64,000 nt of DNA, taken from positions 8,119 through 72,118 of the forward strand of contig JAEWBT010000047.1 of NCBI GenBank assembly GCA_023391015.1, written 5' to 3'. Of the stretch, positions 2,074-30,571 are shown in pieces. Within the stretch, counting starts at the first letter, position 1, and every line of letters starts with the position of its first letter. A model generated the notes under the pieces. It was given only the letters and a program-made list of their open reading frames with translations, was not told the origin of the DNA and did no database searches. The position numbers and the translations under genes were made by a program. The DNA comes from Bacteroidota bacterium (GTDB taxonomy: Bacteria; Bacteroidota; Bacteroidia; Chitinophagales; Chitinophagaceae).

Positions 2074-2289
2074 ATGTTAGTTGAGCGATTTAGTCAAAAA
2101 ATCAAAAGCCAACGGAAAAGCTTAGGAATTACCCAGCCGCACCTCGCGGAATTGGCAGGTGTAAGTGTGAACTGGTTAAGTGCTTTTGAACGCGGAAAAG
2201 CTAATCCTACATTAGTAATCTTGGAAAAAATCATCGAGGTGCTTGGCTTGGAAATTCGTCTAGAGGTCAAAAGCCCAGACTCGCTATGA
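2074..2289 (+). CDS. hipB: XRE-family HTH protein, HipB-like
   Basis: LGITQPHLAELAGVSVNWLSAFERGK helix-turn-helix motif. Its stop overlaps the start of the next gene by 4 bp. I chose the ATG at 2074 rather than the longer ORF-track start. Confidence 0.7.
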   Translation: MLVERFSQKIKSQRKSLGITQPHLAELAGVSVNWLSAFERGKANPTLVILEKIIEVLGLEIRLEVKSPDSL

Positions 2290-2618
2290 GGAAGGCCATC
2301 GTTTATCGCAATGGTATAGAAGCGGGCATTCTAACGGAGGAAAATAGACAGCGATATACTTTTCGCTATCACGATACTTATCTCGCTGATGCCACCCTTC
2401 CAGCCGTGAGCCTGACTCTCCCTAAAACAGCTTCAGAACACAGCAGTGAATACCTATTTCCGTTCTTTTTCAATATGCTAAGTGAAGGCGTGAATCGGAA
2501 GCTGCAAAGCCTGCAATGGAAGATTGACGAAGAAGATTCTTTTGGCCTGTTACTCGCTACCGCACAGTGGGACACGATTGGAGCCATAACTGTTAAGCCC
2601 ATAGAATCTGAAGCATGA
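2286..2618 (+). CDS. hipS: stand-alone HipA N-terminal-subdomain protein, HipS-like
   Basis: 110 aa with the couple_hipA-like pattern (VYRNGIEAGILTEE...LFPFFFNMLSEG...GLLLATAQWDTIGAITV). It overlaps both neighbouring genes by 4 bp. Confidence 0.7.
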   Translation: MRKAIVYRNGIEAGILTEENRQRYTFRYHDTYLADATLPAVSLTLPKTASEHSSEYLFPFFFNMLSEGVNRKLQSLQWKIDEEDSFGLLLATAQWDTIGAITVKPIESEA

Positions 2619-3621
2619 ATCCCTACGAACTTGATCGCTGTCCAGGATTACTTGCTGAAGGCTTTAGTACTTATAGTCCGCGCGTGCTGCGTCGCATGTT
2701 TGGCGGTAAGAAAGTAAGCCATATTCTTCCCTACGATCCGTCACATCAAAACGAAGAAGTAGAAGCTCTTTTTATAGAGAATCGCAAGCGGATTTCTATC
2801 TCTGGCGTACAGGAAAAGCTGAGTCTGGTTTTAGACAAAAACAAATTGCGCCTTACAGAGGTAGGGGAGCGTGGTACCTATATCCTGAAGCCGATTCCGC
2901 GTGACCTAAAAAGAGTGTCTCAGGTGCCCGCCAATGAGCATCTCACGATGCAATTAGCCACACAGGTTTACGGGATTGAAACCGCTGAGGCCGTCCTAAT
3001 ATTTTTCAAGGATGGGCACCTGCTTACCTCACTAAGCGCTTTGATGTAAAACCTGACGGACAACAAAGGGGTAAAGAGGATTTTGCTACGCTTGCAGGTA
3101 AAACGACGCAAAGTGCCGGTCCTGATTTTAAGTATGAATTCAACTACGAATCCGCTGGTAAACTGATTCAGAAATACGTTCCAGCCTGGCGGGTAGAGAT
3201 TGAAAAATATTTTGTGCTGGTGTTGTTCAATTACCTGTATGCAAATGGTGATGCGCACCTCAAAAACTTCTCCCTTCTGGAATCGGATACAGGTGATTAC
3301 CGGATAAGTCCCGCCTACGATTTGATTAATACTCGCCTTCATGTAGATGATACAGACTTTGCTTTAAACAATGGACTTTTTGAAGACAAATTCCAAAGTG
3401 AAAAGCGACAAATACGCGGTTATGCGTGTAAGGCCGATTTTGTAGAATTTGGACGTCGGCTTGGCGTTTTAGAAAGTCGGATTGAAAAGCTGATCGTTCC
3501 TTTTCTGATTAATCAATCTGCAGTTGAATCGCTTATTAGTCGCTCGTTCTTGAGCGAAGAAAGCAAGCGAGGGTACTTGCATACCTATAGAACAAGGCGG
3601 AATAGATTGATGACGAGCTAA
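2615..3621 (+). pseudogene. hipT: HipT-like kinase toxin (HipA kinase core), broken by a 1-nt frameshift at the GGG run 3014-3016
   Basis: The frame-2 ORF (RISISGVQEKLS Gly-rich loop) stops at 3049. Frame 1 continues APAYLTKRFDVKPDG...YANGDAHLKNFSLL...SPAYDLINT to 3621. The total length of 1007 nt is one base short of 336 codons. Confidence 0.75.
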
Positions 3622-3656: not shown

Positions 3657-4451
3657 TTAGGGCTTATTAAGCCACCATGTCACTAAAATCACTGCTATAA
3701 ATCCCAATACTCCCAGTATAATAGAAGTACTATGCCTTGATTTGCTTTTCTGAGCGGAAACAAGAAGTTCTTCAGAAAGCTTTTGTTGGGATTGCGCAAA
3801 ATCGGCTGTCAGCCCGCTCAGTGTATTGGTGATTTTTTCCTCCAGCTTTGTAACAGAAGTCTGCTGATTTTGGATTCCGATATTAATAGCGGCTACAGTA
3901 GCATCTAGCTTGTCGAGTCGCAGAGGCAGATTGATGTCTGCCAATTGGCGGACAAAAGCTTTGAGCTGATCTGCAGTTCCCTGAATGCTGCTTATCTGTG
4001 CCACTATGTTTTGACTAGCTGCATTCAGTTCCCCTGTCCTTAGGTCTATTGACTTGTTGAGGTGGTCAACTTTATCAGCGTGAATATTGCTAATACTCGT
4101 AAGATTTTCTTGGAAGCTCTTCGTGATTCCAGAAAGATTTCTTTCTAGCTCTTTTCGTGCGCTGTCCAGTTTTTCCTGTACAGTATCCAGATTGCTTAAC
4201 AATGTATCTTGCATCAAGGCTGGTACACCTTTCAACTTCTCATAGGCTCTCTCACAAATGACCTGTGATTGCGTAAGATGACCATCAAGCTTCTTGCCCG
4301 TCTCTGTAAGAAGCTTGTGATGCGAGTCTCCAATAGTGCGAACTAGTTCCGTCGCTTCTTGGGCAATTCGTGTATGCTCAATGGCTGGTTCCAGTTCTAA
4401 CAACTTGCTTTGCAGTTTAAGGAGACCTTCGGTTACGGCTTGGGAAGGCAT
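3657..4451 (-). CDS. coiled-coil protein with C-terminal transmembrane anchor, function unknown
   Basis: 264 aa. Heptad-rich and Leu/Gln/Glu-rich throughout, ending in IILGVLGFIAVILVTWWL. Its start lies 1 nt after the stop of the upstream giant gene. Confidence 0.55.
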   Translation of the reverse strand: MPSQAVTEGLLKLQSKLLELEPAIEHTRIAQEATELVRTIGDSHHKLLTETGKKLDGHLTQSQVICERAYEKLKGVPALMQDTLLSNLDTVQEKLDSARKELERNLSGITKSFQENLTSISNIHADKVDHLNKSIDLRTGELNAASQNIVAQISSIQGTADQLKAFVRQLADINLPLRLDKLDATVAAINIGIQNQQTSVTKLEEKITNTLSGLTADFAQSQQKLSEELLVSAQKSKSRHSTSIILGVLGFIAVILVTWWLNKP

Positions 4452-4452
4452 A

Positions 4453-7400
4453 TCAGGTTTTTTTTAAAAAGTGCGTGTGAAATTGCTTGAGCCAGTCGTA
4501 ATGATACTCTAGAAGCACTTCATCATCCAACGACTGAAAGATTTCAGCGACATCTACTTCTCTCACTTTCGCTTCAATCTTTTGTTGGAGGCTACTCAGA
4601 AATGAGGTGAGTTGCTCAGTGCTTACTTGGTTTTGCAGCAGGCGTACTCCTCGCTTCAGGTCCTCGATTGCGTTCTCAACTAGTAGTTGGGTGTTGGTTT
4701 CTTCGCTTTGAACAATAAGACAGTAGGCACGTAAAAAATAGGCGGCAGCAAAATTGGGGTAAGCATTAATACTTCGTTGCGCAGCTCCGCGCAGGTGTTT
4801 TAGATTGTTCTTGAAGCTGCCTGTTATGTCCGTATCTAAGAGATCGATAAATTCGTCTGCAACCACTTCCGCTTCATCGTCCCTCCGCTTCAACAAGCAA
4901 GCAGGAGTTTTCTTTCCATTTTCTAGAACGGCTTCGTTTTCCGGTCGGGCATATTTCGCATTGAAGTAGTAATACACCTCAGATTTAATCGCTTCCGACT
5001 GCTCAATGGGCTCTTTGATTTGGAGCGCGTATTCGCAAAGACGCACCACGTCGTTCATAGCAAGCTGACGTTTCTCCGCAATCTTAGCGTACACAAATTC
5101 AGTGAGACGCTCGAGACAATAGCGCATCTCCGACTGTTCACTGCTCTTGTATTTCTGCCGGTAACCGCTGACTATTTGGGCTGCGTCTTTAGCGCTGCTG
5201 TATCTGCTAATAACTCTTTCCAACTCATTGAGGTAAAAGCCTTCTTTCTTTCGTCTGCATAGAATTTCAAAGCAATTATTTTGGTAATCAATAGTATAGC
5301 TGTCTACTATACCTAGCGTGGTGAGTCGGTAAATTGCTTTCGCTGTATCCTGCCCGTTCCGAGGAAGACTATACACTTGCTGTACCTCCTTATTGGTAAA
5401 GATTTTTTCTTGCAAACCCGGAGATGAATCATTCACGAAGCCATTTACAAATTCATGAAAAGAGTGACTTGTCCTCAGTGAATGCTCTACACGAAAGTCT
5501 ATAGCATCATTTGCGTAAATGCCTTCTTCGATAAGCTTCTTAAACAGTGCACAGTCTTTGAGCTTTTGCCGCAATTCCGACGAAATAATTTTCTCTTTTG
5601 TGACTCTGTTTGTAGTGGGATAATACTTGTTTTGGAATGGAATGGTGAGGCGCACTTCTTTCTTTACAGATAGCAGGGTTTCTATGCCTCCGTAAGGCAC
5701 ATCACTTTCCACCACTGCGCCTAGTGCAAGCCAAAAGGCAACATCGTTTGCTGCTTTTACACTATCACGCAGATGATCCCGGAAATGACCAACTACAGAT
5801 TCATAACCCGCAGGCGTGTACATAGGCACAATACCATTGGGAGTGATGTTCAGATAGCCCACCTCCTCTCCGTCTATTTTGACGTAGACCTTTCTCTCCG
5901 CATTACTTGTCCGAGGATTGGCATCTATCTCTTTCAACCCATGTACAGCAGCAAATTGATTTGCCAGTAGTTGGAGTCGGCTGATTCTTGGTGGTAGAAT
6001 CCGAGTAAGAAGTTCATCCAAAATCACAGTCTCCTTTATCGCACCCTGAAACGAAAGTCGGTAGAAGAAATCTAGAATCTCGCGATCAGGCAGAAAGGCA
6101 CCGTCTGTATCTAGCTTGTAAGCGTCTGCATCACCCAAGCGGGTAAAGCGCTGTCGGTTGAAATAAACCGTTGCCAGTGCTACTTTGCCGTCGCGTGCGG
6201 CGCGGCCTGCTTCCTGAACAAACGACTCTATGCTGCCGGGAATGTTCAGGTGATACGTCCAGCGAACATCCGGCTTGTCAATGCCCATGCCGAAAGCTTT
6301 TGTGGCAAACATCAACGACGCTTTTCCAGTAATGAAAGCATCCATGTGCTTGATGGATTCGTCTTGGTGATTGACAATTCTTTCCCCCTCTCTGTCATCA
6401 CCTGCACCCATAAAATAACCTTTTGTCTCACCATTTCCGGCAACTGCTAAGAACAGATTATGCACTCCATAGTCGCCTCTGCGGTGTGGCGCGAATGCAA
6501 TACTGCCGTAGTTGTATCTACCGTCTAGCTGTTGTTGGAGTGGCACATCGGCGTCTTTCAAGAGACGGCCTATCGCTTTCGTTACATAGGCATCCAAGCC
6601 TTTCTCGCGCTCAAAATCGGGTAGGTAGTTTTCATAGGCATTAGGCAGTACTCTCTCCCGAAGCGTTGCTTCTTCCTGGTACTTCTGCAAAGAAGATTTT
6701 TTCTTGTGAACTGCACTCTCTAACAGTGACCGTTTTTCCAACGCTATCTTTCCTTGGAGTTCCTGCCTGTTGTATATCATATCTACATCCACAGGCACTG
6801 TTACTTCCTGAATGCTGAAGAATATTTCGTTGCGTACGGTGTTTTCATGACGCACGACGGCATGACCATCTTCTTTGTCTATCTCCAGTTCTCGTTCAAT
6901 GTCTGCCAGCACGTCAAACGAAGCGGTAGCTGTCAATCCAAATAGTGGTAATTCTTTCCCGTCGCAGGTTTTGCAGAATTCCCGTGCGTTGATACCCAAG
7001 TGTAGATAAGGCGTTCGAAAATCATGTCCCCATTCCGAAAGGCAGTGGACTTCGTCAATCACGCAGTGAGCAAAATGAAAGCCTGCCTCTTGCGTTTGAG
7101 CGAGGCAGTCCCGGAATTCCTGAATCACTAGCCGCTCCGGGGAGATGAACACCAACTGAGCTCTCCCCGCTGCAAGCTCTTTTTGCGCCTCTCGTTTCTC
7201 AGCAGTCGACAATACAGAGTTGATAAACAAGCTACGGGTAATACCAATGTCATTAAGGCCCCGGTGTTGGTCTAGCATAAGACTTCTAATAGGATCTACT
7301 ACTAGTGTAATCCCTGGTTGAAGCATAGCCGCAAACTGGTAAGTAAGCGACTTACCGCCGCCCGTAGGTAGCAGTCCTATCACAGACTTGCGCCGCAAGG

Positions 7401-8823
7401 CACGCGCCAGAATCGGAAGCTGTCCCTCTCGGAAGTCGGTTTTCCGGAAAAGCAGGGAAAGCAACTTTCGTAGATGGACTACGGCTGCCTCTTGTGGAAG
7501 AAAAGAGCCGTCGTTTTGCGCAACGCCAATGTTTTTGAAAAGAACCGGAAGTGCATCTTTGATGGAATCTTGCAGTCCGGGTTCTTTGTAATGGGCACTG
7601 CGGATGAGAATAAGGTTCTCTGCTGCTACGGGCGACTCAAACACGTCCAACCGTTGAAGCAAAGCCAAGTCAAAAACGGCATCATATCCTTCGTCCGTAA
7701 ACTCGGAAATGGCTTTTGCTTCGGGTTGCAGTATCAGTTTACCGAGCCAGTCATTGGTGAAGACGATTAGCTCAATCGCTGGAATGTGTGTAGGCTGTTC
7801 TGCAAGTTCATCCAGTGTATAGAGTAGTTCCTTCAACTCTTTCCAAGCCTGCTTTGCCGCTGGAATATCTTGCTCAATGACAGCTATTTTCAGCGAAGGC
7901 GTTTCAGACGGAATTGTATGTAGCCATTCTAATAAGGCGAGTTGCATCCGTGCAATCGCCGTAGGCAAGAAGGCGTGGCAATAATGCGCATGAGTCAGAG
8001 GTTTTTCCTCTTTGTACAAAGCCGCCAACTTCTGCACGTAGTCGTTCGCACTAACGCTTCTAAGGAACGCTTGCGCATCATTAGAAGCATTAAACTCCCG
8101 TATGTGGTGAATAGCTCTCCCTTCACCAGCGATAGCAAAATCTTTAAGTTCATCAATTGCTTTTTTGTGGTAGCGCTCGCCGTCCACCTCCACAACATGC
8201 TGTTCTTTGTAGCGAATGAAGTGGTCTTTTCCATAGCGGTTTACGGTACGCCATTTCAGGTAAGGAATCTCCAAGCAGAAATCCACACGGCCTTCGTTTC
8301 CGGCTGCTGCCCCCAATGTGGCGCGTGGCCGCTGTCGCGCAAAAAGTTGACGCAGATAAGCCTGTTCCTCCCTGATGTATTCTCCAATAAAGGCCCTCTC
8401 AAAGTTGCTTTCCAAGCCGGCTTTACTGATGCGTAGTTTGCTGGCTTTGCTTTGTGGAAGAATGACATGAAGGGCATTCACAACACCATTGACAAAAACA
8501 TCGGGAACTGTTCCTTCCTGCCAGTCATACCGGATAATTCCTTCTTTTGAATCATCATGTGTTGTGTATTTAAAGGTCTTTGCCAGTAATTCTTCCGTTC
8601 GTGGGCTTGCCATTGTAGGCGCACCCCGGGAAAGTATGTTGTAGGCAATGGCGAATATCCCTGCCATTGGCCTCGACGTGCTGAGGCCCTCCACATGAAA
8701 AAGGCTTAGCTGCTCCAACAGCCCTTCCACTTTCCCGGAAAAAGACGCTGACTCTTCAGCACAACGGCGAAGTAACGCTTGGCGAACTGGTTCGGAGAAG
8801 GCAGAGGCTTTAAGCTGTGGCAT
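4453..8823 (-). CDS. 1456-aa nuclease-helicase: DUF559/Vsr-like endonuclease domain + RecQ-family SF2 helicase + long C-terminal extension
   Basis: N-terminal part: ARQRP...GRVDFCLE...VVEVDGERYH (DUF559 pattern). Helicase motifs: LPTGGGKS, IDEVHCLSEWGHDFR, ATKAFGMGIDKPDVRW...QEAGRAARDG (RecQ motifs I, II, V and VI). Confidence 0.75.
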   Translation of the reverse strand: MPQLKASAFSEPVRQALLRRCAEESASFSGKVEGLLEQLSLFHVEGLSTSRPMAGIFAIAYNILSRGAPTMASPRTEELLAKTFKYTTHDDSKEGIIRYDWQEGTVPDVFVNGVVNALHVILPQSKASKLRISKAGLESNFERAFIGEYIREEQAYLRQLFARQRPRATLGAAAGNEGRVDFCLEIPYLKWRTVNRYGKDHFIRYKEQHVVEVDGERYHKKAIDELKDFAIAGEGRAIHHIREFNASNDAQAFLRSVSANDYVQKLAALYKEEKPLTHAHYCHAFLPTAIARMQLALLEWLHTIPSETPSLKIAVIEQDIPAAKQAWKELKELLYTLDELAEQPTHIPAIELIVFTNDWLGKLILQPEAKAISEFTDEGYDAVFDLALLQRLDVFESPVAAENLILIRSAHYKEPGLQDSIKDALPVLFKNIGVAQNDGSFLPQEAAVVHLRKLLSLLFRKTDFREGQLPILARALRRKSVIGLLPTGGGKSLTYQFAAMLQPGITLVVDPIRSLMLDQHRGLNDIGITRSLFINSVLSTAEKREAQKELAAGRAQLVFISPERLVIQEFRDCLAQTQEAGFHFAHCVIDEVHCLSEWGHDFRTPYLHLGINAREFCKTCDGKELPLFGLTATASFDVLADIERELEIDKEDGHAVVRHENTVRNEIFFSIQEVTVPVDVDMIYNRQELQGKIALEKRSLLESAVHKKKSSLQKYQEEATLRERVLPNAYENYLPDFEREKGLDAYVTKAIGRLLKDADVPLQQQLDGRYNYGSIAFAPHRRGDYGVHNLFLAVAGNGETKGYFMGAGDDREGERIVNHQDESIKHMDAFITGKASLMFATKAFGMGIDKPDVRWTYHLNIPGSIESFVQEAGRAARDGKVALATVYFNRQRFTRLGDADAYKLDTDGAFLPDREILDFFYRLSFQGAIKETVILDELLTRILPPRISRLQLLANQFAAVHGLKEIDANPRTSNAERKVYVKIDGEEVGYLNITPNGIVPMYTPAGYESVVGHFRDHLRDSVKAANDVAFWLALGAVVESDVPYGGIETLLSVKKEVRLTIPFQNKYYPTTNRVTKEKIISSELRQKLKDCALFKKLIEEGIYANDAIDFRVEHSLRTSHSFHEFVNGFVNDSSPGLQEKIFTNKEVQQVYSLPRNGQDTAKAIYRLTTLGIVDSYTIDYQNNCFEILCRRKKEGFYLNELERVISRYSSAKDAAQIVSGYRQKYKSSEQSEMRYCLERLTEFVYAKIAEKRQLAMNDVVRLCEYALQIKEPIEQSEAIKSEVYYYFNAKYARPENEAVLENGKKTPACLLKRRDDEAEVVADEFIDLLDTDITGSFKNNLKHLRGAAQRSINAYPNFAAAYFLRAYCLIVQSEETNTQLLVENAIEDLKRGVRLLQNQVSTEQLTSFLSSLQQKIEAKVREVDVAEIFQSLDDEVLLEYHYDWLKQFHTHFLKKT

Positions 8824-8917
8824 CTAATAGGTATAGATTAAAGTTGCTGAACGCTATGTGTAGACTGTAGAGTCAGCGCGTTCTACAAGTACTAAGATCA
8901 ACCAGATTTCCGGAGTT

Positions 8918-11900
8918 TCATCTCGCTAAATGCTCTGGGTTATTTTGAGCTATGGAAAGCGTATAAAGCAATGGGTTGGTATCTCTCTTATCTATTTCCA
9001 AAACCTTCGTAGCCGAAGCATCAAAAAAGGACGTTTTTGACGAAATGCGTGCTACACTCCAGCCATGCTCAATGCCACCGTCGGGGCGTAAAATTATTTT
9101 TGCCTTCTGGTTGTAAAGCTCTAAGGAGCGGTAGTGCGGAAGAGGAGTGTTCTGCGCAGATACCTTTGGAATACCTATTTGGGCTGCGAAAGAGCAAATG
9201 GCTTCATTCCTTGCCTCCCCATCAGGATAATTATGTGTGAGCCGATAAGGCGTTTTATCTTCCCTAAAATCATGGCCCTGAAAGGTAAAGGAATCTATCT
9301 CAAAGCCAAGCCGTGCCTGCAACCGCTGGATAAATTGAATCAGCAATATCACACCAAAAGGTGTCCTCATATAGCGATCGCTATAGGTGAGGTGAAAAGA
9401 CTGCCCTTCCATAAGTGCTTTGAGGTCAACCTTCTTCCCCAGTTCGGTTAGCACCAAGTCGGCAACGCTGTCTGAAGAGACAGGTTTATCTGTAGTAATC
9501 TTCGCCTCGTGGATGCGTTGGTTGTGGATACGCAAATCGGGTTCGGAAAAGGCCTCTAAACTTTCCTCGCTCTTCTTGTAGAGTAGTCCTTCTTTGAGCC
9601 GTCCCCAATTTACGTTTAGATCCTCTTCATGTGCAACTGCTAAAAAAGACATAAGTGCGCCATCGCGAAACTGCATCTTACAAACAGGGTGTAGGGGCGC
9701 ATTGGGATCTATTTTGCTTGTCAGTACAGTGTACCAAGCCTGCGCTTGAAGGAGTGTTAGCTGATCCTCCTCCGATAAAAAACCGGAAAGGGGTGGCATA
9801 ACCAGACTTACTTTCACCCGTTGGCGAAGTGCATCTAAAAGTGCCAATTCGGAAGTATTCCAATTTCCTAAATTATTAGAAACATAGAGATATGCGTGTT
9901 CTAATTGATTGCTGTTTAGGTGCTTCAGAATCTCATTGCGCAAAGGCGTTGTTGCCAATTGTAAGCCGGGATACTGCCTACTTAACGTGTCAGGCACTTT
10001 TACGTCTGCCGCTTTTTGAAGCCATTCCAGTGCTTTCTTCCGGTCTAATTGAGGTAAATGCCACTGGGTATTCCGGTCTATAAGACATTTTGTGCAGGCC
10101 CTATCGCACTCGCACACCAACTTTTGCTGCGCAATCTGAATGATTTTCCAGAGGTACGAGGAAAGTTGCGAGGTGTAACCCGCGCCCCCTTTGGCTGTGT
10201 CAAAAAAGAAAATGGTCGTGAACTTTTCATACTTCTTGATACCGAAGCCAATCTCATCCGATTCTACAGTCAGATAGTGTGCTAACTCTTTGGAAAGCAC
10301 CGCGCCAAGCGTATAAAGAAGCGTTTCATCTTTTACATTAAAAGAACCGTTCTCCTCGCGTAACCGAAGTTCACAATAATCGGTGCGGAATCTTCCGCCC
10401 AAGATGACGTGCTCTTTAATAGCATAGGAGTTTTCATTTCCGGAGCAAAAGGCAGTCGTTTGTTCTTCACCTTTGCCGCCTCTCAACCGTTTGTGGCTGG
10501 CAAGCGCATCTTTATCATAGGCGGTTCTGCCACAATGCAAACAAACGGCGTATCCGTCGCCCGCGCCGGTGTTGTAGAACACGATTTCGCCATTTTCTTC
10601 ACTGTCTCGGATTTCGTAAAGCAATGGACTTTCAGGTAACCAAGGCTTCACGTTCAACAGGAGCGGGTCAATGTATTGGACGTAACCTGTTCGGTCTTCT
10701 ATGTTCCTGCTGGGCTGTTGGTAGATATCCACCGCAAAACCGGCGGGCTGAATCATTTCTGTGTACCCACTTCGCAGATTTTTGCTTTTAAAGCTCAAGC
10801 CGGTAAAGGTGTTTTGCTCTTCGCAATGGGGACAGTTTTGGCTGATTGCCTGTCCTTGAGCAGCTTCTAAGATGCGTTGGTAGCCACATTTTCGGCACGA
10901 CTGAATGATTTCCCGCTCTGCTTGTTTGCCGTGTTCGTCCTTTAGGATAATACCTGCTGATAGGTAGCTTTTCCCGTCTATCACTACGTTTTTGCCAGGT
11001 GCAAACTCGGAGAGCGCCCGCGTAATAAAGTAAGAGGGTTTGGATGATTTTCGCTGATTGTTTCTTCCTTTTTCCTCCAACTCGCTGATGGTGAGGGTAT
11101 CAAATTCCACAATGCCGGTAGGAAGTCCTGCACTTGGCAAAAAGCCTTCTTCCACCATAAAGCTGATAGCATCCTTATCCTGGAACTGCTGCTTTTGATA
11201 TTTTACAGCTTTGTAGGCAGGCGAATCTTCCCCAAAATCCCGCTCCAGCATTTTGAGCTTTTCCTCTAGTGCCAACTGCTTTTGAGTTGTTGCCCCATAT
11301 ACGTCCTCAAAATGTTTGGTGGCCTTACTCAGCAGAAAGGAAAAAGTGTGGTCACGCCAAGGCGTATTTTGCAGAATAGGCTTGAGTGCATTTTTGCAAC
11401 TATCGGCCTCTCCATTTTGCAACCAAAGCAAGAATTGCGAGGCAAAGCCACCTTCGTCCAAAAAGAAGTTCTGAACTTTAATGCGCACGTTTAAGCCTTG
11501 AATGGCATCCGTTTGCACGAAATGGCCTAGAAAAAAGGCGTTTACATGGCGTGCGATTACCGCACTGCTGTGAAACGAAAGGCTAGGTGGTGCGATAGGG
11601 TGTCTTAATGCCCATAAAGGATTGGCCATTACCTGGAGGCCCACCGGATTGGGGGCACAGATAGTGAAGGCAGTTGATTTTGCCTCGGCCCGCCGTCCTG
11701 CTCGCCCTGCCCGCTGCAAATAGTTGGCTGGTGCAGGCGGAACATTATTCATTACCACCGTAGAAATGCCGCCAATATCTACGCCCATTTCCATTGTGGT
11801 AGAGCAGTTGAGTACGTTCAACTTTCCCCGTTCAAATTCATTTTCCAGCGTCTTTAACCGGCTGTCGGATTGCTGAGCAGAGTGTTCGCCGGCAAGATAG

Positions 11901-14900
11901 AGCGGTTGGTTTAGGATGACCTGTTCGTGCAAGTTATTCCAAACCCCTTGCTCACGCATATGCAAAGCGTTTTCCGCAATCCACGCACGCGTCCGTCCTA
12001 TTTGTGGGTTCTTCTCCGCATCCAAATGGAAAGGGAAAGGCATCAGCGGTATGGACACCTCTTTTTTTATCCTGTAATGATTAATATTATCAGGGTGGAG
12101 ACGACCCTTTATCCAAGGCGAATAGTGCCGGAAATGGGCATCAATCAGACGACGCTTGACTGGACAAAGCCATACTGTTGAGGACAGTTTAAAAGCAGAG
12201 GCGTTTTCCAGATAGAGCTTGTAGCCGTTGCCAAATTCATCCAGGACTCTTACTTTAATGACCTTCCATAGGTCCTCTAGCAGCGCGTTGAGCTGGTCCT
12301 CCCTTTCTGCATCTATGTCATTCAACTGGTGCCAGCCTAATCCCGCACACAGCAACAAAGCCAATCGGTTCGGGTGTGTTTTATCAAACCGCGGCCAGCG
12401 TCTTACGTCCACTTCGCGCGCATCCGGGTTAAAAACAGGCACACTCCTCAAATTGCCTGTTGTATAAGGCAATACTGAATTAGAAACATTGAAATGGTAG
12501 CGTAAACGCACAACGTAGTCCACGGCTATTTTCAAAAGGGACTGCCACTCAGGTTGTGTAATATTCAGTACACGCGCGGCGGTAGGCAGTGGTGCGTCTT
12601 GCAGTTTTGGATAAATGAGGCTTACCAGACCCAAATTTTCCAAAGAACGCATCAGCGGCTGACGCAACGCAAATTGGTCGTAGAGGATGGCATCCAGATA
12701 ACGCTCCTTCGCAAGAGGGTTGTTATCGCCTGGGTTGTTGCCCTTAAAAAGATTGAAGAAGTCGGGCCGTGAAACGAGATATTCCTTCAAATCTTTCCAA
12801 TTGAGCGCCACTTTTTCCCGTGCATCTCCTTTGCCTGTCTGCTGTTCTTTTAAGGCATCAAGAGCTTTCTGTTTTTGGTTTCGCAGGAGCGGGAGCGTGG
12901 TTTTGGCTAGCTCGGCCTCCAACTGCTTAATTGCTTCTTGTATTTCGTCTTCAGAACCCGCAACGTTTTCCTCCTCCCATAGTTTTACTTTTTCACACAA
13001 CTTGTGAAAAACCTGCGAGCGAACCCACCGCGCTTCGTTGTCCTGATTAATAAGCGCAGAGATTTTAGCGGTTCCCTGCCTGCTGTCTGTAAAGGAAATA
13101 TACTTGTGTCCTTGCCAGAGCATTTCGCTCGTAAGCTTTTGAGCTTTGGGGGTCTCTTCCAATATGATATCCGCCAAAACCCGATTGATGAAGGCGGAAG
13201 ACAGCCGGAAATGGTTGGGATTTTCTATCTCACTGTCGCAGTAAGGACAAGAGTCACCGTCGTGCATACACACAAATTCGTCTCCACTTCTATCCACAAT
13301 GGCTCCTGCGCTTAAGGAAAAGGAAGCAGTTGCTTTTAAAAGCGGCGCGCCAGAAAGCTTTCTGGTAAAATAAAACTTCTTTGTTCTTGGGTGCTTTTCT
13401 TCCGCAGATGCTTCTACAGGGTCTTCTTCGTGCTCTTGCAGGTCAAACTGAAAGGCATCCTGCACAAGCGCAGACACGGCATCCAATTTTTCGTTGCCTC
13501 TGGCATCTAGGCTTTTTTCGGCCTCTAAAAGCTGGTGGCCGCAGGAGCGACAGGAGACCAACTCAAACACAGGCGCACCGCAGTTGCACAACGACCCAGC
13601 AATGGTAGTCATCGGCCCAATGGCTTCATTGGGAATAATATCTTGCTGGTGATGCGAGCAGGCTCTGTCAGTGCAAACCCAAATGCCACCAATACCGCGT
13701 GCAAAAAAGTGGGCGCGCACTGGAAGAAGAGGGTGATCATCCACAGAACGTTCACTGAGCTTGTCAATGATTCGCAACCGCTCTGTGGTCGTCCCGCTGG
13801 TGTTCAACAGTTTGCCTATTTCGCTCAGCGAAAGGGCATTATTTCGGAGTAACTCTTTACGCAGAAAATGCACTTGATGAAACGTCTCCGGTCTTTCTTC
13901 CTGTAGCCAATCCGTTGTTTGCTTGGCGGCCTGCGTTGGTTTAGGGAGTTCTTGAGGTAATACTCTGCTTCCGGTAATGACAACAATATTCTCCTTCGGA
14001 ATGCCACAAAGCAGCGACATAAAATCCTGAAGCTGTTGAAAGCTCTCCGGGTTGGAGCCAACGGTGGCAGAAGTGATGGCAAACCGCAGGTTTTTCGTTT
14101 CCACCCCAAAAGCATCCGCAACGCGCCGGATAAGTAGCGCCATTTCCGAAGCTGCGGAGCCGGTGAGCGTGTGAGCTTCATCCAGCAGAATCCAACGCAG
14201 CTTACCCTGCGAATTTTTAAGCAGGGGAACGTCTTTGTTGCGCACCAGAATGTACTCCAACATAGAAGGGTTGGTGAATAAAATCTGCGGAGGCTGTTCG
14301 CGTATCTTGCTCCGGGAGATGACCTCTGGCTGGGCGTCTTTTTCGGCAGACACACTGGACGTTTCATCAGTCTGTCCATTGTACACCGCGTAGCGAACGC
14401 CGCCAATGGCTTTACACCACGCGTGCATCCGCTTGCGCTGGCTACCAATAAGCGCGTTGAGCGGATACAGGAAGATGGCATTCACCCCGGTTCCATTCCG
14501 GCAGTTTTTGAATAAATCATACAGCACTGGAAGCATAAAACACTCCGTTTTGCCGGAGCCAGTGCCGGTGGTAACGGCAATAGATTTGTTTTCGCTGAGT
14601 AGCTTTTCCCAGCTTTCAACTTGGTGTTTGTAGGGATGGCGCTCTATCGGGAACCGAAATTCATTGTCTTTAATGCCGCTAAGCGCTTTAATAAAGTCCT
14701 TGTCAAATACCTCTTCCATATCGCCGAAACGTTGCGAAGCCGCCTCCCATGGAAAAGCCGACTGAATCACCGGCTCGGCCATAAGCTTTTCCTTGGTCAG
14801 GATATGTCCTAAGTAAGTCTGCATATTTGCTTCGCCGGTAGCCCAAAGTGAGAGGGCAGCATCCGTCAGCCTTTTCTTGGTGTTCGTGTAGAAGCGTTGG

Positions 14901-14908
14901 AAGTTCAT
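8918..14908 (-). CDS. druE: 1996-aa DEAD/DEAH helicase with Zn-ribbons and a DUF1998-type C-terminal region, DruE-like
   Basis: TTGTGSGKTE, LLDEAH and TMEMGVDIGG...QRAGRAGRR helicase motifs split by a large insert. Cys clusters: CNCGAPVFELVSCRSCGH and CLHCGRT. The size and architecture are those of Druantia DruE. Confidence 0.6.
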   Translation of the reverse strand: MNFQRFYTNTKKRLTDAALSLWATGEANMQTYLGHILTKEKLMAEPVIQSAFPWEAASQRFGDMEEVFDKDFIKALSGIKDNEFRFPIERHPYKHQVESWEKLLSENKSIAVTTGTGSGKTECFMLPVLYDLFKNCRNGTGVNAIFLYPLNALIGSQRKRMHAWCKAIGGVRYAVYNGQTDETSSVSAEKDAQPEVISRSKIREQPPQILFTNPSMLEYILVRNKDVPLLKNSQGKLRWILLDEAHTLTGSAASEMALLIRRVADAFGVETKNLRFAITSATVGSNPESFQQLQDFMSLLCGIPKENIVVITGSRVLPQELPKPTQAAKQTTDWLQEERPETFHQVHFLRKELLRNNALSLSEIGKLLNTSGTTTERLRIIDKLSERSVDDHPLLPVRAHFFARGIGGIWVCTDRACSHHQQDIIPNEAIGPMTTIAGSLCNCGAPVFELVSCRSCGHQLLEAEKSLDARGNEKLDAVSALVQDAFQFDLQEHEEDPVEASAEEKHPRTKKFYFTRKLSGAPLLKATASFSLSAGAIVDRSGDEFVCMHDGDSCPYCDSEIENPNHFRLSSAFINRVLADIILEETPKAQKLTSEMLWQGHKYISFTDSRQGTAKISALINQDNEARWVRSQVFHKLCEKVKLWEEENVAGSEDEIQEAIKQLEAELAKTTLPLLRNQKQKALDALKEQQTGKGDAREKVALNWKDLKEYLVSRPDFFNLFKGNNPGDNNPLAKERYLDAILYDQFALRQPLMRSLENLGLVSLIYPKLQDAPLPTAARVLNITQPEWQSLLKIAVDYVVRLRYHFNVSNSVLPYTTGNLRSVPVFNPDAREVDVRRWPRFDKTHPNRLALLLCAGLGWHQLNDIDAEREDQLNALLEDLWKVIKVRVLDEFGNGYKLYLENASAFKLSSTVWLCPVKRRLIDAHFRHYSPWIKGRLHPDNINHYRIKKEVSIPLMPFPFHLDAEKNPQIGRTRAWIAENALHMREQGVWNNLHEQVILNQPLYLAGEHSAQQSDSRLKTLENEFERGKLNVLNCSTTMEMGVDIGGISTVVMNNVPPAPANYLQRAGRAGRRAEAKSTAFTICAPNPVGLQVMANPLWALRHPIAPPSLSFHSSAVIARHVNAFFLGHFVQTDAIQGLNVRIKVQNFFLDEGGFASQFLLWLQNGEADSCKNALKPILQNTPWRDHTFSFLLSKATKHFEDVYGATTQKQLALEEKLKMLERDFGEDSPAYKAVKYQKQQFQDKDAISFMVEEGFLPSAGLPTGIVEFDTLTISELEEKGRNNQRKSSKPSYFITRALSEFAPGKNVVIDGKSYLSAGIILKDEHGKQAEREIIQSCRKCGYQRILEAAQGQAISQNCPHCEEQNTFTGLSFKSKNLRSGYTEMIQPAGFAVDIYQQPSRNIEDRTGYVQYIDPLLLNVKPWLPESPLLYEIRDSEENGEIVFYNTGAGDGYAVCLHCGRTAYDKDALASHKRLRGGKGEEQTTAFCSGNENSYAIKEHVILGGRFRTDYCELRLREENGSFNVKDETLLYTLGAVLSKELAHYLTVESDEIGFGIKKYEKFTTIFFFDTAKGGAGYTSQLSSYLWKIIQIAQQKLVCECDRACTKCLIDRNTQWHLPQLDRKKALEWLQKAADVKVPDTLSRQYPGLQLATTPLRNEILKHLNSNQLEHAYLYVSNNLGNWNTSELALLDALRQRVKVSLVMPPLSGFLSEEDQLTLLQAQAWYTVLTSKIDPNAPLHPVCKMQFRDGALMSFLAVAHEEDLNVNWGRLKEGLLYKKSEESLEAFSEPDLRIHNQRIHEAKITTDKPVSSDSVADLVLTELGKKVDLKALMEGQSFHLTYSDRYMRTPFGVILLIQFIQRLQARLGFEIDSFTFQGHDFREDKTPYRLTHNYPDGEARNEAICSFAAQIGIPKVSAQNTPLPHYRSLELYNQKAKIILRPDGGIEHGWSVARISSKTSFFDASATKVLEIDKRDTNPLLYTLSIAQNNPEHLAR

Positions 14909-14924: not shown

Positions 14925-17900
14925 TTAGGGTTGAAGGCGGCTCAGACAGTGGCAAATGGCTTGTCCATACCATTGTGGGTGGAGCTGATAGCAATACTGA
15001 ATGTTACGACGCACGATTTCAGCATCTATGCTCCATAAATCATGTGTTTCCCCTGCTATAGAAAGCGCAACAGCAGTTGGTGCTTTAAGCAGGATCTTTA
15101 CGGTGCGATTGCCCTCGTTTACAGGAATCAATTCCTTAAACTTGAGCGCTATTTTCGGCTGTTCTCTGGGCAGCACGGTTAATACTTGTTCTCCCAAAGT
15201 CGTACGCAATTCCTGTATGGCACTGTTCAAATGGAAGCCGGGCGTTGGAAAGAGTGACTCTCCTAAAATATACTTAGTGATAGCCCTAAAGCTTGTATTG
15301 GGAACGAGGTTATTGAAATAGCGACTTAGGTTGCTTATGACAATAGACATCAGCTCTGGATTTTGAAAGCAGCCTATCCAAAACATTGCAAACCCCCAAT
15401 CGTCTTTGGAGATCCAATGAAAGCACAACCCCAGTTCTGCTTCTAGGCGTTTTTGAATCTCCTCATCAAATGACTCCTCTTCACTGTAACAAAGCAGATA
15501 TACAAACGCCTTCGCCGCCAGCTCGCCAGAACATGCAATACACCGCAGCAACTCAAAAGAAGCTAAGGGCAAACTGTACTTCAGACAGAGTTGGTAGCAG
15601 TTATAAAATTGCTTCCAAATCTCATCTTCTGGGGTGGCTGCTTGAAGCAACAAAGTCCGCATTTGAAGGGTGCGCGCCTGCGTTTCCTCCTCTTGGCGCT
15701 GAGGGGGGAAGTCTTCCTCCGTTTCCAGAATATTCTCACCAGAAACAGCCTCTTTTTTAAACGTTATCAGGGTAGGTTTCAGCACAGCGCCTTCCCCAAA
15801 AACAAAGTAGCGCGCTTCTTCATTTTCGGGAAAGAGCATCCAGCCTTCCGCTGATTTTTCCAGCGCCTGAAGTTCCTTGGTTTCGGAGAGACTGTCTAGC
15901 GAAATGGCCCATAAGGGATGGTCTGCCGCACTACTCTTCACGAGAATTTTATCTTCGCGCTGCTCGTAGGTAATCTGGCCTTCGTACGGGGAAATGTGGT
16001 AAGTAGCGCAGGTACGCTCGTTGCCGTTTTGGCGGATGCACAACTCCAACGCAATCTGCGCGGGTGCGCCCGGCCCGGTGAGCCGAAGTAGGTGATTTAT
16101 TTTGTCCTCAAAAAACGACAGGGGCGTAACCCGTTGCGAAATGGGATGAACGCTTGCAACTACGGGATTGCTCTTGTTCCGAAGTCGGAGGATAACGTTC
16201 TCTTCGTTCACTAAAATCCGGTGACCGTAGAGTTTTGAAACGCATAGGTTTTCTTCCTGCGAAAGCATCCGCTGGTCTTTATCCACAAGGGCTATTCCTT
16301 TAAACGGCGCACAAAAACCAAAACGCAACGCCCGTTGCCCGGGTAGGCTGATCCGACCATTCAGCGAAGCCGGAAATCTATCATGCTGCTCCAGCCGGAC
16401 ATGGACGCGCTGGGGTGTTTCGGCTGTTATTTGGCAAAGCACCTTCGGCTCCACAATCGCAAAGTCAAAAGGGTCTCCGTTCAAGGATAATGTGGCTTCC
16501 TGGAACTGTTGGTTAGAGGCCGAAAGGTCAAAAGTGCCGATATTGTAGCAGCGGTCGTACTCTACCATCTCGCCCACCTGAATCTTTAAGTGGACAACAC
16601 CTAACGGCAATGGACCACCCAGTGGCTGCCAGTCGCGCGCACCGGAGATTTTCCAGCGCACCGACACAGGTCTAATGGGTTTACCTTCTTTGTCGGTTAC
16701 GTCTATAAGGGGCCTGCGACGCAACACAGGCATATTGGCTCGCTGCATCCACGAAGGCCTTTCCTCCCGCAACGTCCACTGAAAACTGGGGCAATGGGTG
16801 CAAAACTGGTAGGACGTTTCGTTTTGCCGAACGCTCTGGGTGCCTTCAAATTTGGTCCAATAAAGGCAACTGCCAGCTACCTCAATCAGTTCTGTTTCCT
16901 CCAGCGCCAACAAGTCGCAGGATTCTGGCCCCAGCAGGTAGGCCGTTGCTTCTTCCGTGTTGTTGCCTCTCGCTAGTAGGAACTGGTTCTCCGAGTATTG
17001 CGTCCAGAGTGTAGGCCGGTCCAGCCGCGGACTGTTCGGAATCATTTGCGTGCAATCGTAGCGGTTGCCCTCTATGTCCAGCAGATACACTTCCGGCAGC
17101 GCGCTTTGCGCTTCCCAAAAAAGCGAATCCTGATTTACCCACACAGGCCGATACGTATCATCACCCCGCCGCACCAGTTTACACAGCAGTTCATCGTTGT
17201 AGAACAAGCGATACTCCGGGCTGCCAAAATCTGTTTCCGGGTCTTCACCACACAAAGCCAGCAGTTCTTTTTTGCTCAACTCTCCGATGGTTAAGTAGAG
17301 GCGAATACGCTTTCTCTCCGGTTCCAACACCCAACTGGCGCGCACTTTTCGCAGGGCTTTCTTTTCGGTGGGGCGCTCTTTTTCTGCGCGAAGCACCCGT
17401 ACGATTTCTGTAAGCTCTGCCGTTTCTTCTAAAAGCGTCAGCACCTCAGCGTGGCCTTGCCGGTCTGTGCCGTCACTCAAGATGGCCTGCACAATCGCTA
17501 AGCAGCACTCGTACACTTGATCGTTGCGGCTGGAGAGTGGCAGCAGGGAGGTGAGTGTTGCGTCAAAGGCAAAATCGTCAATGTTTTTGGGGCGCAAAGC
17601 CAGAATGCGCAAAAGGAAGGTTTTGTAAGCGCCGTCGTTTTTGCGGATGTGCAGGATAGGCAGGCCGCCCTGTTGAAGCAGGGTTTTAAAATAAAACGTG
17701 CGGTCATGGCGCATCCACCGCACACCCAGCAACTTGGCTCCTTTTTTAGCGTGCTGGAAGAAATCTTCCGCATCAAAAAGCGGATTGTTTTGAAAGCTCA
17801 CAAAAACCATTTGCTTAGAGGGTACGCCGCCTTCGTAACAACGCTTCCACCATTCGGCATAATACAGCGCACAGTCGCGCGGGTCAAGGCCACTTAAGTG

Positions 17901-18026
17901 GCGTGTGCTTCTCAAAAGGTTTTTTAGGTGGTGAAACTCATTGTCACTGAGGTTATACTTCCATAGCGCGCGGGAGTCATGGCGATTTATGTTCCGCTTT
18001 TCTAAGAGTTGTAAGAATAGGCCCAT
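14925..18026 (-). CDS. 1033-aa protein with no motif I can recognise; its position and size fit DruH of type III Druantia
   Basis: Long uninterrupted ORF ending 16 bp upstream of the DruE-like gene. The assignment rests on synteny only. Confidence 0.4.
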   Translation of the reverse strand: MGLFLQLLEKRNINRHDSRALWKYNLSDNEFHHLKNLLRSTRHLSGLDPRDCALYYAEWWKRCYEGGVPSKQMVFVSFQNNPLFDAEDFFQHAKKGAKLLGVRWMRHDRTFYFKTLLQQGGLPILHIRKNDGAYKTFLLRILALRPKNIDDFAFDATLTSLLPLSSRNDQVYECCLAIVQAILSDGTDRQGHAEVLTLLEETAELTEIVRVLRAEKERPTEKKALRKVRASWVLEPERKRIRLYLTIGELSKKELLALCGEDPETDFGSPEYRLFYNDELLCKLVRRGDDTYRPVWVNQDSLFWEAQSALPEVYLLDIEGNRYDCTQMIPNSPRLDRPTLWTQYSENQFLLARGNNTEEATAYLLGPESCDLLALEETELIEVAGSCLYWTKFEGTQSVRQNETSYQFCTHCPSFQWTLREERPSWMQRANMPVLRRRPLIDVTDKEGKPIRPVSVRWKISGARDWQPLGGPLPLGVVHLKIQVGEMVEYDRCYNIGTFDLSASNQQFQEATLSLNGDPFDFAIVEPKVLCQITAETPQRVHVRLEQHDRFPASLNGRISLPGQRALRFGFCAPFKGIALVDKDQRMLSQEENLCVSKLYGHRILVNEENVILRLRNKSNPVVASVHPISQRVTPLSFFEDKINHLLRLTGPGAPAQIALELCIRQNGNERTCATYHISPYEGQITYEQREDKILVKSSAADHPLWAISLDSLSETKELQALEKSAEGWMLFPENEEARYFVFGEGAVLKPTLITFKKEAVSGENILETEEDFPPQRQEEETQARTLQMRTLLLQAATPEDEIWKQFYNCYQLCLKYSLPLASFELLRCIACSGELAAKAFVYLLCYSEEESFDEEIQKRLEAELGLCFHWISKDDWGFAMFWIGCFQNPELMSIVISNLSRYFNNLVPNTSFRAITKYILGESLFPTPGFHLNSAIQELRTTLGEQVLTVLPREQPKIALKFKELIPVNEGNRTVKILLKAPTAVALSIAGETHDLWSIDAEIVRRNIQYCYQLHPQWYGQAICHCLSRLQP

Positions 18027-21852: not shown

Positions 21853-22396
21853 ATGGCTTCGAGGCCATGAAATCTATATTTCGGCAAGTATATCCGGCGA
21901 ACTTAGTTACCGGCAATCTTGAGCCTGCTGATAATACCGCTGTGATAAAAGCATCGCAACGGGCTTCATCAAACAAGCCAGCCGCAACTGCCTGGCATAG
22001 AAAATCCATCGTTGTCAGGTAGTCTATGTGGTGGAGCTCGCAATAGTGCTTGGTGTCTTTGAGGTTGCTGCTTGCCAGAATATTCTTTTGATAGCGCGCT
22101 ACCGCAAGACAAGCACTTTCGCCATCGCCTTTAAAAAGGTTCTTCTTAATGGAGAAATATTCCCGCTTGATTTCTTCGTTTTCTTCCGGGAAAGCCATGA
22201 GTTGAATACGCTTCTTGGAGAGCAGATGAGACAGCTTTTGCATCATGGCTATCCGTTTCCAGTTCTGCAATTCCCTGTGCACTTTATCCAGCATCCGTAT
22301 CTGGCAATCGGGAAAAATCAGGTGAAGAATCTCTTCCTCTCCCGCGCTGATAAAATGGGAGACGACATCCGCATCAATCAAGATAGTCCGCTTCAT
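21851..22396 (-). CDS. PIN-like nuclease domain protein (DUF4411-like)
   Basis: 181 aa with acidic residues in PIN-like positions (ILIDADVV, GDGESACLAVA, SSNLKD). Its start overlaps the end of the ImmA gene. Confidence 0.55.
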   Translation of the reverse strand: MKRTILIDADVVSHFISAGEEEILHLIFPDCQIRMLDKVHRELQNWKRIAMMQKLSHLLSKKRIQLMAFPEENEEIKREYFSIKKNLFKGDGESACLAVARYQKNILASSNLKDTKHYCELHHIDYLTTMDFLCQAVAAGLFDEARCDAFITAVLSAGSRLPVTKFAGYTCRNIDFMASKP

Positions 22397-29869: not shown

Positions 29870-29880
29870 AGCTAAACGCT

Positions 29881-30504: not shown

Positions 30505-30571
30505 AAAGGTGCTGGTTTAGGCCGTTAGAAAAACAAATGTGCATGCACCTTGTGCAGCCTATTTGCACAAA

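Follow-up and report, generated by a model that had tools for sequence, protein, structure and literature searches.

What is the function of two adjoining genes that lie directly downstream of a Druantia type III system in a Chitinophagaceae genome (Bacteroidota), and do they belong to that system? The genes, here termed A and B, are located in a 64,000-nucleotide stretch of contig JAEWBT010000047.1 (assembly GCA_023391015.1, positions 8,119 to 72,118 of the forward strand). This stretch is called the window, and all coordinates refer to it unless a homologous locus, designated by an L number, is named. We propose, with a probability of about 0.5, that A and B would form an autonomous, horizontally mobile anti-phage or anti-plasmid module, in which B may tether or gate a nuclease-helicase on the cytoplasmic side of the inner membrane. 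The genes and their borders are as follows.

4453..8823, minus strand: gene A, predicted 1456-amino-acid multidomain RecQ-like helicase-nuclease (list of open reading frames, ORFs, and translation; stop codon included)
4449..4455, minus strand: A-B junction TGA-T-ATG, translational coupling (read from the sequence)
3657..4451, minus strand: gene B, 264-amino-acid helical protein, predicted tail-anchored partner of A (translation and family alignment)
8824..8917, minus strand: 94-nt spacer from the DruE stop codon to the start of A (ORF coordinates)

The stop codon of A and the start codon of B are 1 nt apart (...ACC TGA T ATG CCT...), and this junction bears out the translational coupling claimed by the first-pass annotation of the window, which also had the gene coordinates, the 1-nt spacing and the 94-nt distance to the DruE-like gene right. 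The ORF upstream of A (8918-14908, 1996 amino acids) is DruE3, matching the full PADLOC profile with 2147 bits. The 94-nt spacer is the boundary between the Druantia III and A-B systems. A scan of this spacer for a sigma-70-like consensus, which omits the promoter types of Bacteroidota, found none, and Rfam and repeat scans of the A-B region revealed nothing relevant.

The A-B pair is widespread. In a database search, more than 120 full-length homologues have 35-37% identity to A, and a single one has 70%. The C-terminal region of A defines 956 clusters (50% identity) at E<=1e-3, mainly from Bacteroidota, with others scattered across phyla and on plasmids; wherever the full-length protein is seen, this region is always at the C-terminus of a protein of about 1350-1780 amino acids. 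A scan of one genome per species identified at least 584 relatives of A, and the best 80 loci were examined. Most of them are from Bacteroidota, and the others belong to Ignavibacteria, Clostridium, Lachnospiraceae, Pirellulaceae, Alphaproteobacteria, Synergistales, Marinimicrobia, Anaerolineaceae, Desulfovibrio and Ellagibacter. Downstream DNA sufficient for evaluation of the partner was available for 73 homologous loci, and in 69 of these the helicase gene is followed by an ORF on the same strand whose product has a single anchor, at its C-terminus; the same rule flags only 2 of 354 background ORFs (0.6%). The start of the B-type gene is mostly at -53 to +33 nt relative to the stop of the A-type gene, with many overlaps of 1-14 nt. 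Thus, the co-occurrence that the first-pass annotation had proposed to check across genomes is found in 69 of 73 loci, and A and B constitute a conserved, translationally coupled and co-inherited module in nearly every genome with A. No match was found by megablast in 5,426 Escherichia coli genomes, and no family member by tblastn in 50,697 phage records.

These loci also bear on the possibility, raised in the first-pass annotation, that A and B are a fourth and a fifth component of an expanded Druantia III, acting together with DruH and DruE. The pair does lie on the same strand as DruE and only 94 nt downstream of it, and one plasmid-borne pair (L087) is next to a DUF1998-type helicase system. 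However, when 84 loci, each with flanks of up to 8 kb, were searched by tblastn with the window DruE and DruH, no adjacent homologue was detected, the sole match being a weak one of 150 amino acids in L034. As neither DruE nor DruH is adjacent in any of the 84 loci, we conclude that the pair is not a Druantia component; the closest homologue likewise resides in a non-Druantia context. Druantia profiles match A and B at noise level only (DruE3 at 0.0018 on the Helicase_C part of A, DruC1 at 0.00085 on a helical stretch of B). Moreover, Druantia type III functions as a two-gene system of DruH and DruE (PMC13316683; bioRxiv 10.64898/2026.05.12.722862). An expanded Druantia is therefore extremely improbable, and the other option offered by the first-pass annotation, an independent two-gene system recurring in at least 69 species-level genomes, is favoured. 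ARMADA II, a neighbour of Druantia III in enterohaemorrhagic E. coli, was considered as a further candidate and rejected, being an unrelated YprA-type system according to the literature.

The motor and nuclease parts of A, from which the proposed activity of the module is deduced, are located as follows.

6154..7476, minus strand: A residues ~450-890, RecQ-type superfamily 2 helicase core (Pfam, NCBIfam below cutoff, matches in PDB)
8044..8436, minus strand: A residues ~130-260, putative divergent DUF559/Vsr-like PD-(D/E)xK nuclease (family-wide profile, invariant residues)

The helicase core of A is specifically RecQ-like, in agreement with the first-pass annotation, which had noted RecQ-family motifs. 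It contains Walker A GGGKS (residues 488-492), DEVH (590-593) with an aromatic loop, and motif VI QEAGRAARDG. Pfam assigns DEAD (467-639) and Helicase_C (820-879) and no other family to the helicase. The top 37 matches of a phmmer search of PDB with A are all RecQ-family chains (RecQ, BLM, RECQ1/4/5 and WRN), the best being 4q47 (E 1.8e-42), followed by 1oyw, BLM, RECQ1 and others down to about 1e-39. The alignments span residues 454-649 and 826-888, and an insertion of about 170 amino acids separates the two RecA lobes. The aromatic loop of A, DEVHCLSEWGHDFR, aligns with DEAHCVSQWGHDFR of RecQ. Both NCBIfam RecQ models score below their cutoffs, TIGR00614 (recQ_fam) with 206.0 bits against 219.8 and TIGR01389 (recQ) with 243.7 bits against 640.2. 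A thus shares motifs 0-VI and the HC(L/I)S(E/Q)WGHDFR loop with RecQ helicases such as E. coli 1OYW, Deinococcus radiodurans 4Q47, BLM and RECQ1. In contrast to these, it has about 450 additional N-terminal and about 560 additional C-terminal residues as well as the inter-lobe insertion, is paired with a gene for a membrane partner, and is devoid of the Zn-binding/RQC winged-helix and HRDC domains. Pfam detects no RQC, HRDC or Zn-binding domain of RecQ in A, none of the RecQ chains from PDB aligns past residue ~890, and RecQ structures are absent among the Foldseek PDB matches of the C-terminal model.

The N-terminal part of A is predicted to carry a DUF559/Vsr-like PD-(D/E)xK nuclease domain. 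The motif by which the first-pass annotation recognized a Vsr/DUF559-type endonuclease is present and invariant in the family; direct Pfam tests are negative, and homology is supported through a family-wide profile. The motifs in A are QR (164-165), RVDF (179-182), EVDGERYH (212-219) and D224/K227/D228. Residues D181, E212, D214, G215, Y218, H219, D224, K227, D228 and H240 are invariant across the family. The residues of catalytic type (D on strand 2 and E-x-D-G..H on strand 3) are conserved in A, with D181, E212, D214, G215 and H219 invariant in alignments of 22 and of 20 sequences. The nuclease of the window clade has a hairpin insertion of about 20 amino acids between VDF and ExDG.

Searches restricted to the window protein and its narrow clade did not detect this domain. 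Pfam, even at E<=10, matched no PF04480, PF03852 or PF18741 in A residues 1-433, and a scan of 22 clade members found no DUF559, and no match of any kind at the C-terminus. Comparison of the narrow-clade profile with a purpose-built YcjD/DUF559 profile by hhalign gave a probability of 0.5%, and ad hoc removal of the insertion left the result not significant (P 0.008, 17 columns). A profile of the N-terminal 450 residues produced only chance acetyltransferase matches against PDB sequences. The divergent family members have the canonical E-[IV]-D-G-x-Q-H about 20 residues past R-[LIV]-D-F. All nine divergent relatives scanned match PF04480, with E values from 0.11 to 9e-5 and with three scores above the gathering threshold; REase_MTES_1575 (PF18741) is matched as well by seven of the nine (down to 1.2e-6). 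A 47-sequence family profile with the window protein as master matches DUF559/YcjD with an hhalign probability of 95.8% (E 7.8e-9), aligning window residues 208-257 with YcjD 57-106. The nuclease assignment is hence supported by transitive homology through the divergent relatives and by the family-wide profile. AlphaFold2 (AF2) models residues 140-258 as helix, strands, helix, strand and helix with a predicted local distance difference test (pLDDT) score of 63-70; the Foldseek matches of the N-terminal model to PD-(D/E)xK proteins (MspJI, PA endonuclease, DUF4297; E 0.2-1) are non-significant. The core shared with DUF559/PF18741/Vsr-like proteins such as E. coli YcjD is QR...(V/L)DF...E-x-D-G-x-x-(x)-H...D-x-x-(R/K)-D. 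Unlike YcjD, the window nuclease is beyond direct detection, has the additional hairpin of about 20 residues, has lost the GW..R motif, and is not a separate protein but an N-terminal fusion to a helicase.

The second gene of the module encodes a protein of predicted tail-anchored topology, with no signal peptide and no other transmembrane segment.

3669..3722, minus strand: B residues ~244-261, predicted single C-terminal transmembrane anchor, IILGVLGFIAVILVTWWL (hydropathy)

The Kyte-Doolittle hydropathy of B (KD19) reaches 2.44 at the C-terminus and at most 0.88 elsewhere, and the C-terminal anchor pattern is present in every listed partner. The anchor lies between KSKSRH on its N-terminal side and NKP; given the basic residues of the former, the bulk of B is predicted to be cytoplasmic. 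The first-pass annotation described B as a tail-anchored coiled-coil protein. The single anchor is upheld by hydropathy; the coiled coil is indicated by weak, indirect matches alone, to the coiled-coil parts of ZorA, LmuB, JetC and apolipoprotein (PADLOC and Pfam), and Gly and Pro residues break the helices of B at several places. Two blocks of B are conserved, residues ~8-45 (L..LEPAIEH) and ~170-205 (INLPLRLDKLDATVAAINIGIQN), which read L..LEKLEPAIKH and INFP.RLDKLDA.V..I...IQ, respectively, in the family alignment. A single-sequence, database-wide search with B found only one homologue, with 53% identity, and the A proteins of the same two loci are 70% identical, which points to fast evolution of B. 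Iteration with jackhmmer unites 71 of 72 downstream proteins with B.

The remaining parts of A are specific to the family.

8449..8823, minus strand: A residues 1-125, conserved N-terminal domain (alignments, AF2)
7489..7986, minus strand: A residues ~280-445, alpha/beta linker domain (AF2; no match in Pfam or PDB)
4456..6141, minus strand: A residues 895-1456, family-specific C-terminal region (no Pfam match; AF2; 956 clusters)

The N-terminal domain, with invariant N62, R66, G67, P69 and T70, is common to all family variants, and its 'NIISRGLPT' block is retained in those without the nuclease. The linker domain, modelled as alternating strands and helices, has invariant P287, R292, E317, D319, P348 and D385. 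Both domains are confidently modelled, with pLDDT of 84-92 for the N-terminal domain and about 90 for the linker (about 85-95 for the two together), and are without known relatives by Pfam, PDB profile and Foldseek searches. The C-terminal region includes a small beta domain, a winged-helix-like element near DTAKAIYRL...YTIDYQN, long helices, the YYFNAKY and NLKHLRG segments, and a terminal TPR-like helical repeat. It has no Pfam match at E<=10, and its model gave weak TPR/14-3-3-like Foldseek matches to the terminal repeat (E>=0.03). Foldseek searches of PDB were made with AF2 models of the N-terminal 450 residues (pLDDT 83.5) and the C-terminal 562 residues (pLDDT 79). Neither model had a match at E<0.03, in a test limited by the multi-domain queries and by the moderate confidence of the nuclease core. 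The C-terminal stretch of about 550 residues that was left unassigned in the first-pass annotation is therefore still without assignment.

In the proposed mechanism, B would bind A, probably via its two conserved blocks and either the C-terminal TPR-like region or the N-terminal domain of A, and would hold or gate it on the cytoplasmic side of the inner membrane, the place at which phage or conjugative DNA enters. The RecQ-like motor of A could then load on foreign DNA and translocate in the 3'-5' direction, as RecQ helicases do, after which the N-terminal nuclease may nick or cleave this DNA. The mode of evolution is defence-like: the family is scattered across phyla, its N-terminal modules are shuffled, and sequence divergence is faster in the partner than in the enzyme.

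The N-terminus of the helicase occurs in three variants, with the nuclease only (the window clade), with both a S-adenosylmethionine (SAM)-methyltransferase-like domain and the nuclease, and with the methyltransferase-like domain only. This domain has the motif DWGCGQG and matches Pfam Methyltransf_31 at 2e-5, below the cutoff. The loci with the two latter variants are the following.

Methyltransferase-like domain plus nuclease, 1680-1746 amino acids: L030, L034, L041, L043-L047, L050, L057
Methyltransferase-like domain without nuclease: L053, L056, L060-L063, L069-L084

The occurrence of the methyltransferase-like domain with or without the nuclease identifies the N-terminus as a swappable module, and the presence of the other parts in all variants defines a universal core of the RecQ-like motor, the C-terminal region and the tail-anchored partner. 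A DUF1848 gene (PF08902; PADLOC 'RTasDUF1848') is near the helicase gene in 25 loci, for example L076:5875-6936, L034:6059-7120 and L030:6022-7137, and directly upstream of it in 21; in L076 it overlaps the helicase start. DUF1848, the helicase and the partner form a three-gene version of the module. The sole defence-related mention of DUF1848 in the literature is in a survey of UG/Abi reverse transcriptases. In six loci, methyltransferase-only forms are preceded by a gene of about 205-231 amino acids (at -1 in L053, L060, L061, L069 and L084, and at -2 in L062), which probably belongs to the AlkB-like 2OG-FeII_Oxy_2 (2-oxoglutarate-Fe(II) oxygenase) family, counted five times by Pfam among immediate neighbours. 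The methyltransferase-like and DUF1848 subfamilies suggest that some versions of the module tell self from non-self by DNA modification. The window version has neither module.

The same variants give some room to a mechanism of abortive infection, in which the helicase would sense foreign DNA and the tail-anchored B would oligomerise and damage the membrane, the N-terminal modules being accessory. The partner and the C-terminal region of the helicase are universal and the nuclease is missing in many relatives; B evolves fast; and effectors that span the membrane are frequent among the known systems of abortive infection. On the other hand, a single C-terminal helix with 0-4 residues beyond it would be an unusual pore former, and the window clade keeps an intact nuclease with invariant catalytic residues. 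We regard this mechanism as unlikely. A broad extension of our own proposal is also rather doubtful. We speculate that the A-B pair might be the minimal form of a membrane-tethered RecQ-like immune family of about 1000 clusters, so far unrecognised, whose larger relatives, with a methyltransferase-like domain and a Vsr-like nuclease on the same motor and a DUF1848 (radical-SAM-like) enzyme in addition, would be a new kind of single-polypeptide modification/restriction machine at the membrane, and whose partner would couple DNA entry at the envelope to motor activation.

Comparison of the module with known defence systems yields matches confined to the helicase cores. PADLOC reports matches of A to 18 families at E<=0.01, among them DpdF (3e-74), PsyrT (8e-49) and a Cas3-like model. 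The first-pass annotation had considered a relationship to Hhe. According to Gao and co-workers in 2020, Hhe is reportedly a defence gene that combines a helicase with a Vsr nuclease; to our knowledge, its helicase is not RecQ-like. PADLOC-DB presumably contains an Hhe model, and neither Hhe nor PDC models are among the matches of A at E<=0.01; the nuclease regions of the family have no match to Hhe at E<=1. Like A, Hhe joins a helicase and a Vsr-type nuclease in one polypeptide and is found in defence islands. In contrast to A, which has the nuclease in its N-terminal part (~130-260) and a conserved tail-anchored partner gene, Hhe is a single gene with a C-terminal Vsr nuclease, whose active-site residue E1731 is needed for defence (bioRxiv 10.1101/2022.06.16.496414). 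With no Hhe model matched, the nuclease N-terminal and a second gene obligatory, the suggested link to Hhe was not substantiated.

The best PADLOC matches of A are to DpdF of the Dpd 7-deazaguanine modification/restriction island, for which we know of no tail-anchored partner. The window protein matches DpdF models in the helicase core only, and the NCBIfam equivalog NF041063 scores 134.1 bits against a cutoff of 550. Other than helicase-core cross-matches, none of the island ORFs scanned with PADLOC matches the DpdA-K models. In the divergent relatives L028, L035, L078 and L016, the PADLOC DpdF model PDLC02868 matches the nuclease-plus-linker region (to 3e-7), upstream of its match to the helicase core, which suggests shared ancestry of the nuclease-RecQ architecture with some DpdF-like proteins. 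In the closest homologous locus, PTPS/QueD-like, GTP cyclohydrolase I and GIY-YIG genes directly precede the pair (L001:2789-4456). Together, the PDLC02868 match and these neighbours may reflect a link to the Dpd 7-deazaguanine module or a coincidence.

The match to PsyrT raises the question of a toxin-antitoxin module similar to PsyrTA/RqlHI, with A as a genotoxic toxin and B as its antitoxin. PsyrTA/RqlHI, classed as a defence or toxin-antitoxin system, is likewise a two-gene module around a RecQ-like helicase; according to the passage of PMC9122126 that cites Russell & Mulvey 2015, PsyrT/RqlH is a RecQ-like helicase constrained by its partner. However, the match covers only profile positions 9-201 of 689, within the helicase core. 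A is twice as long as PsyrT, with unrelated N- and C-terminal regions that comprise the nuclease and the large C-terminal region, and B has no match to PsyrA and is predicted to be anchored in the membrane. A toxin-antitoxin module is therefore very unlikely. Zorya and Kiwa resemble the A-B module in layout, combining a membrane protein that has a long cytoplasmic helical part with a DNA-targeting effector in the cytoplasm (nuclease/helicase or DNA-binding), and are not its homologues, although B weakly matches the coiled-coil tail of ZorA3 (2.6e-5, PADLOC). ZorA is a multi-pass MotA-like protein that works with ZorB, and KwaA is also multi-pass. With its one anchor at the C-terminus and without a periplasmic domain, B cannot sense the envelope in the manner of Zorya or Kiwa. 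A full-text literature search found no description of the family. The logic of nuclease-helicase defence is familiar, whereas the RecQ, DUF559 and tail-anchor architecture and the family of about 1000 clusters have been neither described nor modelled in Pfam, NCBIfam or PADLOC.

The window island contains an integrase, a split hipA, Druantia III, a Type I restriction-modification (R-M) system, further methyltransferases and a WYL regulator, which confirms the defence-island setting noted in the first-pass annotation. Across loci the flanks of the pair are hypervariable, with 441 neighbouring ORFs in 343 clusters. Type I R-M subunit clusters near the pair include S in 7 loci, M in 6 and R in 6 plus 4. 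The Pinibacter pair has Type I R-M on one side and EVE/McrBC on the other, and Mrr is also present in Pinibacter; immediate neighbours across loci include GmrSD, C5-methyltransferase, Schlafen/AlbA_2, PglZ and YhcG nucleases. The pair of L087 is on the Haliscomenobacter hydrossis plasmid pHALHY02 (NC_015512.1, 97382-111488) and is followed by DISARM-like genes for a 792-amino-acid hypothetical protein, a helicase-related protein and a DUF1998 protein. After that of the window, next to Druantia III, this is the second pair beside a DUF1998/MZB-type helicase system.

Several observations weigh against a defence function. The system is recognised by no PADLOC, Pfam or NCBIfam model. The defence-gene context was judged on 75 loci without a formal genome-wide background. 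The closest homologue (L001, 70% identity) has ordinary-looking flanks with no defence genes, namely PTPS, GTP cyclohydrolase I (folE) and GIY-YIG on one side and the gliding-motility gene sprB on the other. The DUF1848 and 2OG-Fe(II) oxygenase neighbours fit a role in DNA repair or DNA modification as well. Finally, since a large part of the family lacks the nuclease, DNA cleavage cannot be a universal effector step. Some of these points speak for a non-defence role in repair or recombination, in which a RecQ paralogue and a Vsr-like nicking nuclease would act on membrane-attached or incoming transforming DNA. Both RecQ helicases and Vsr belong to the classical enzymes of DNA repair, the subfamily neighbours include DUF1848 (radical-SAM-like) and AlkB-type 2OG-Fe(II) oxygenases, and the closest homologue is found among housekeeping-type genes. 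Nevertheless, A lacks RQC and HRDC, the domains that serve RecQ repair helicases; the distribution is patchy across phyla and includes plasmid members; the hypervariable flanks often contain R-M, McrBC, GmrSD, Druantia or DISARM genes; and the window copy is in an integrase-bounded island. A repair function is accordingly improbable in our estimation, and an autonomous defence module is preferred.

Should A and B prove to act in defence, they would add a family that is widespread and has so far escaped annotation, above all in Bacteroidota, a phylum in which the discovery of defence systems lags behind. The current annotation of such pairs is 'DEAD/DEAH box helicase' or 'RecQ' followed by 'hypothetical protein'. 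The design would be unusual in that a tail-anchored helical protein ties a RecQ-type motor and a Vsr-like nuclease to the membrane. The pair would also provide a simple two-gene model for the positioning or gating of cytoplasmic DNA-targeting effectors at the site of DNA entry, for which the only models in use at present, Zorya and Kiwa, are far more complex. The variants with methyltransferase and DUF1848 could reveal a new chemistry of self/non-self marking.

Other genes of the window island are as follows. On the side of the pair opposite to DruE are a tyrosine integrase gene with an Arm-DNA-bind_5 domain (752-1972) and, between this gene and the pair, hipA in three consecutive ORFs on the plus strand (2286-3621: Couple_hipA at 2286-2618, HipA_C at 2615-3049 and 3214-3621). 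The split hipA looks like a decayed toxin gene. Upstream of DruE, a gene for 1033 amino acids (14925-18026, minus strand) weakly matches DruH3 (1e-32, mainly residues 6-234), with an NCBIfam YjiT_fam match below the cutoff, and encodes what is, by these profile matches, a divergent DruH. It is preceded by the Type I hsdR gene, and an IrrE/M78-type peptidase gene (22374-23135, minus strand) lies between hsdR and hsdS/hsdM. The region 26238-31573 (minus strand) encodes a 915-amino-acid fusion of HARE-HTH, N6-methyltransferase, a Type I S-like target-recognition domain and a C-terminal HATPase_c (GHKL) domain, with weak PADLOC matches to mad2/mad5; it is flanked by a 295-amino-acid gene and a WYL/WCX regulator, and may be a second unusual methyltransferase-centred system of the island.

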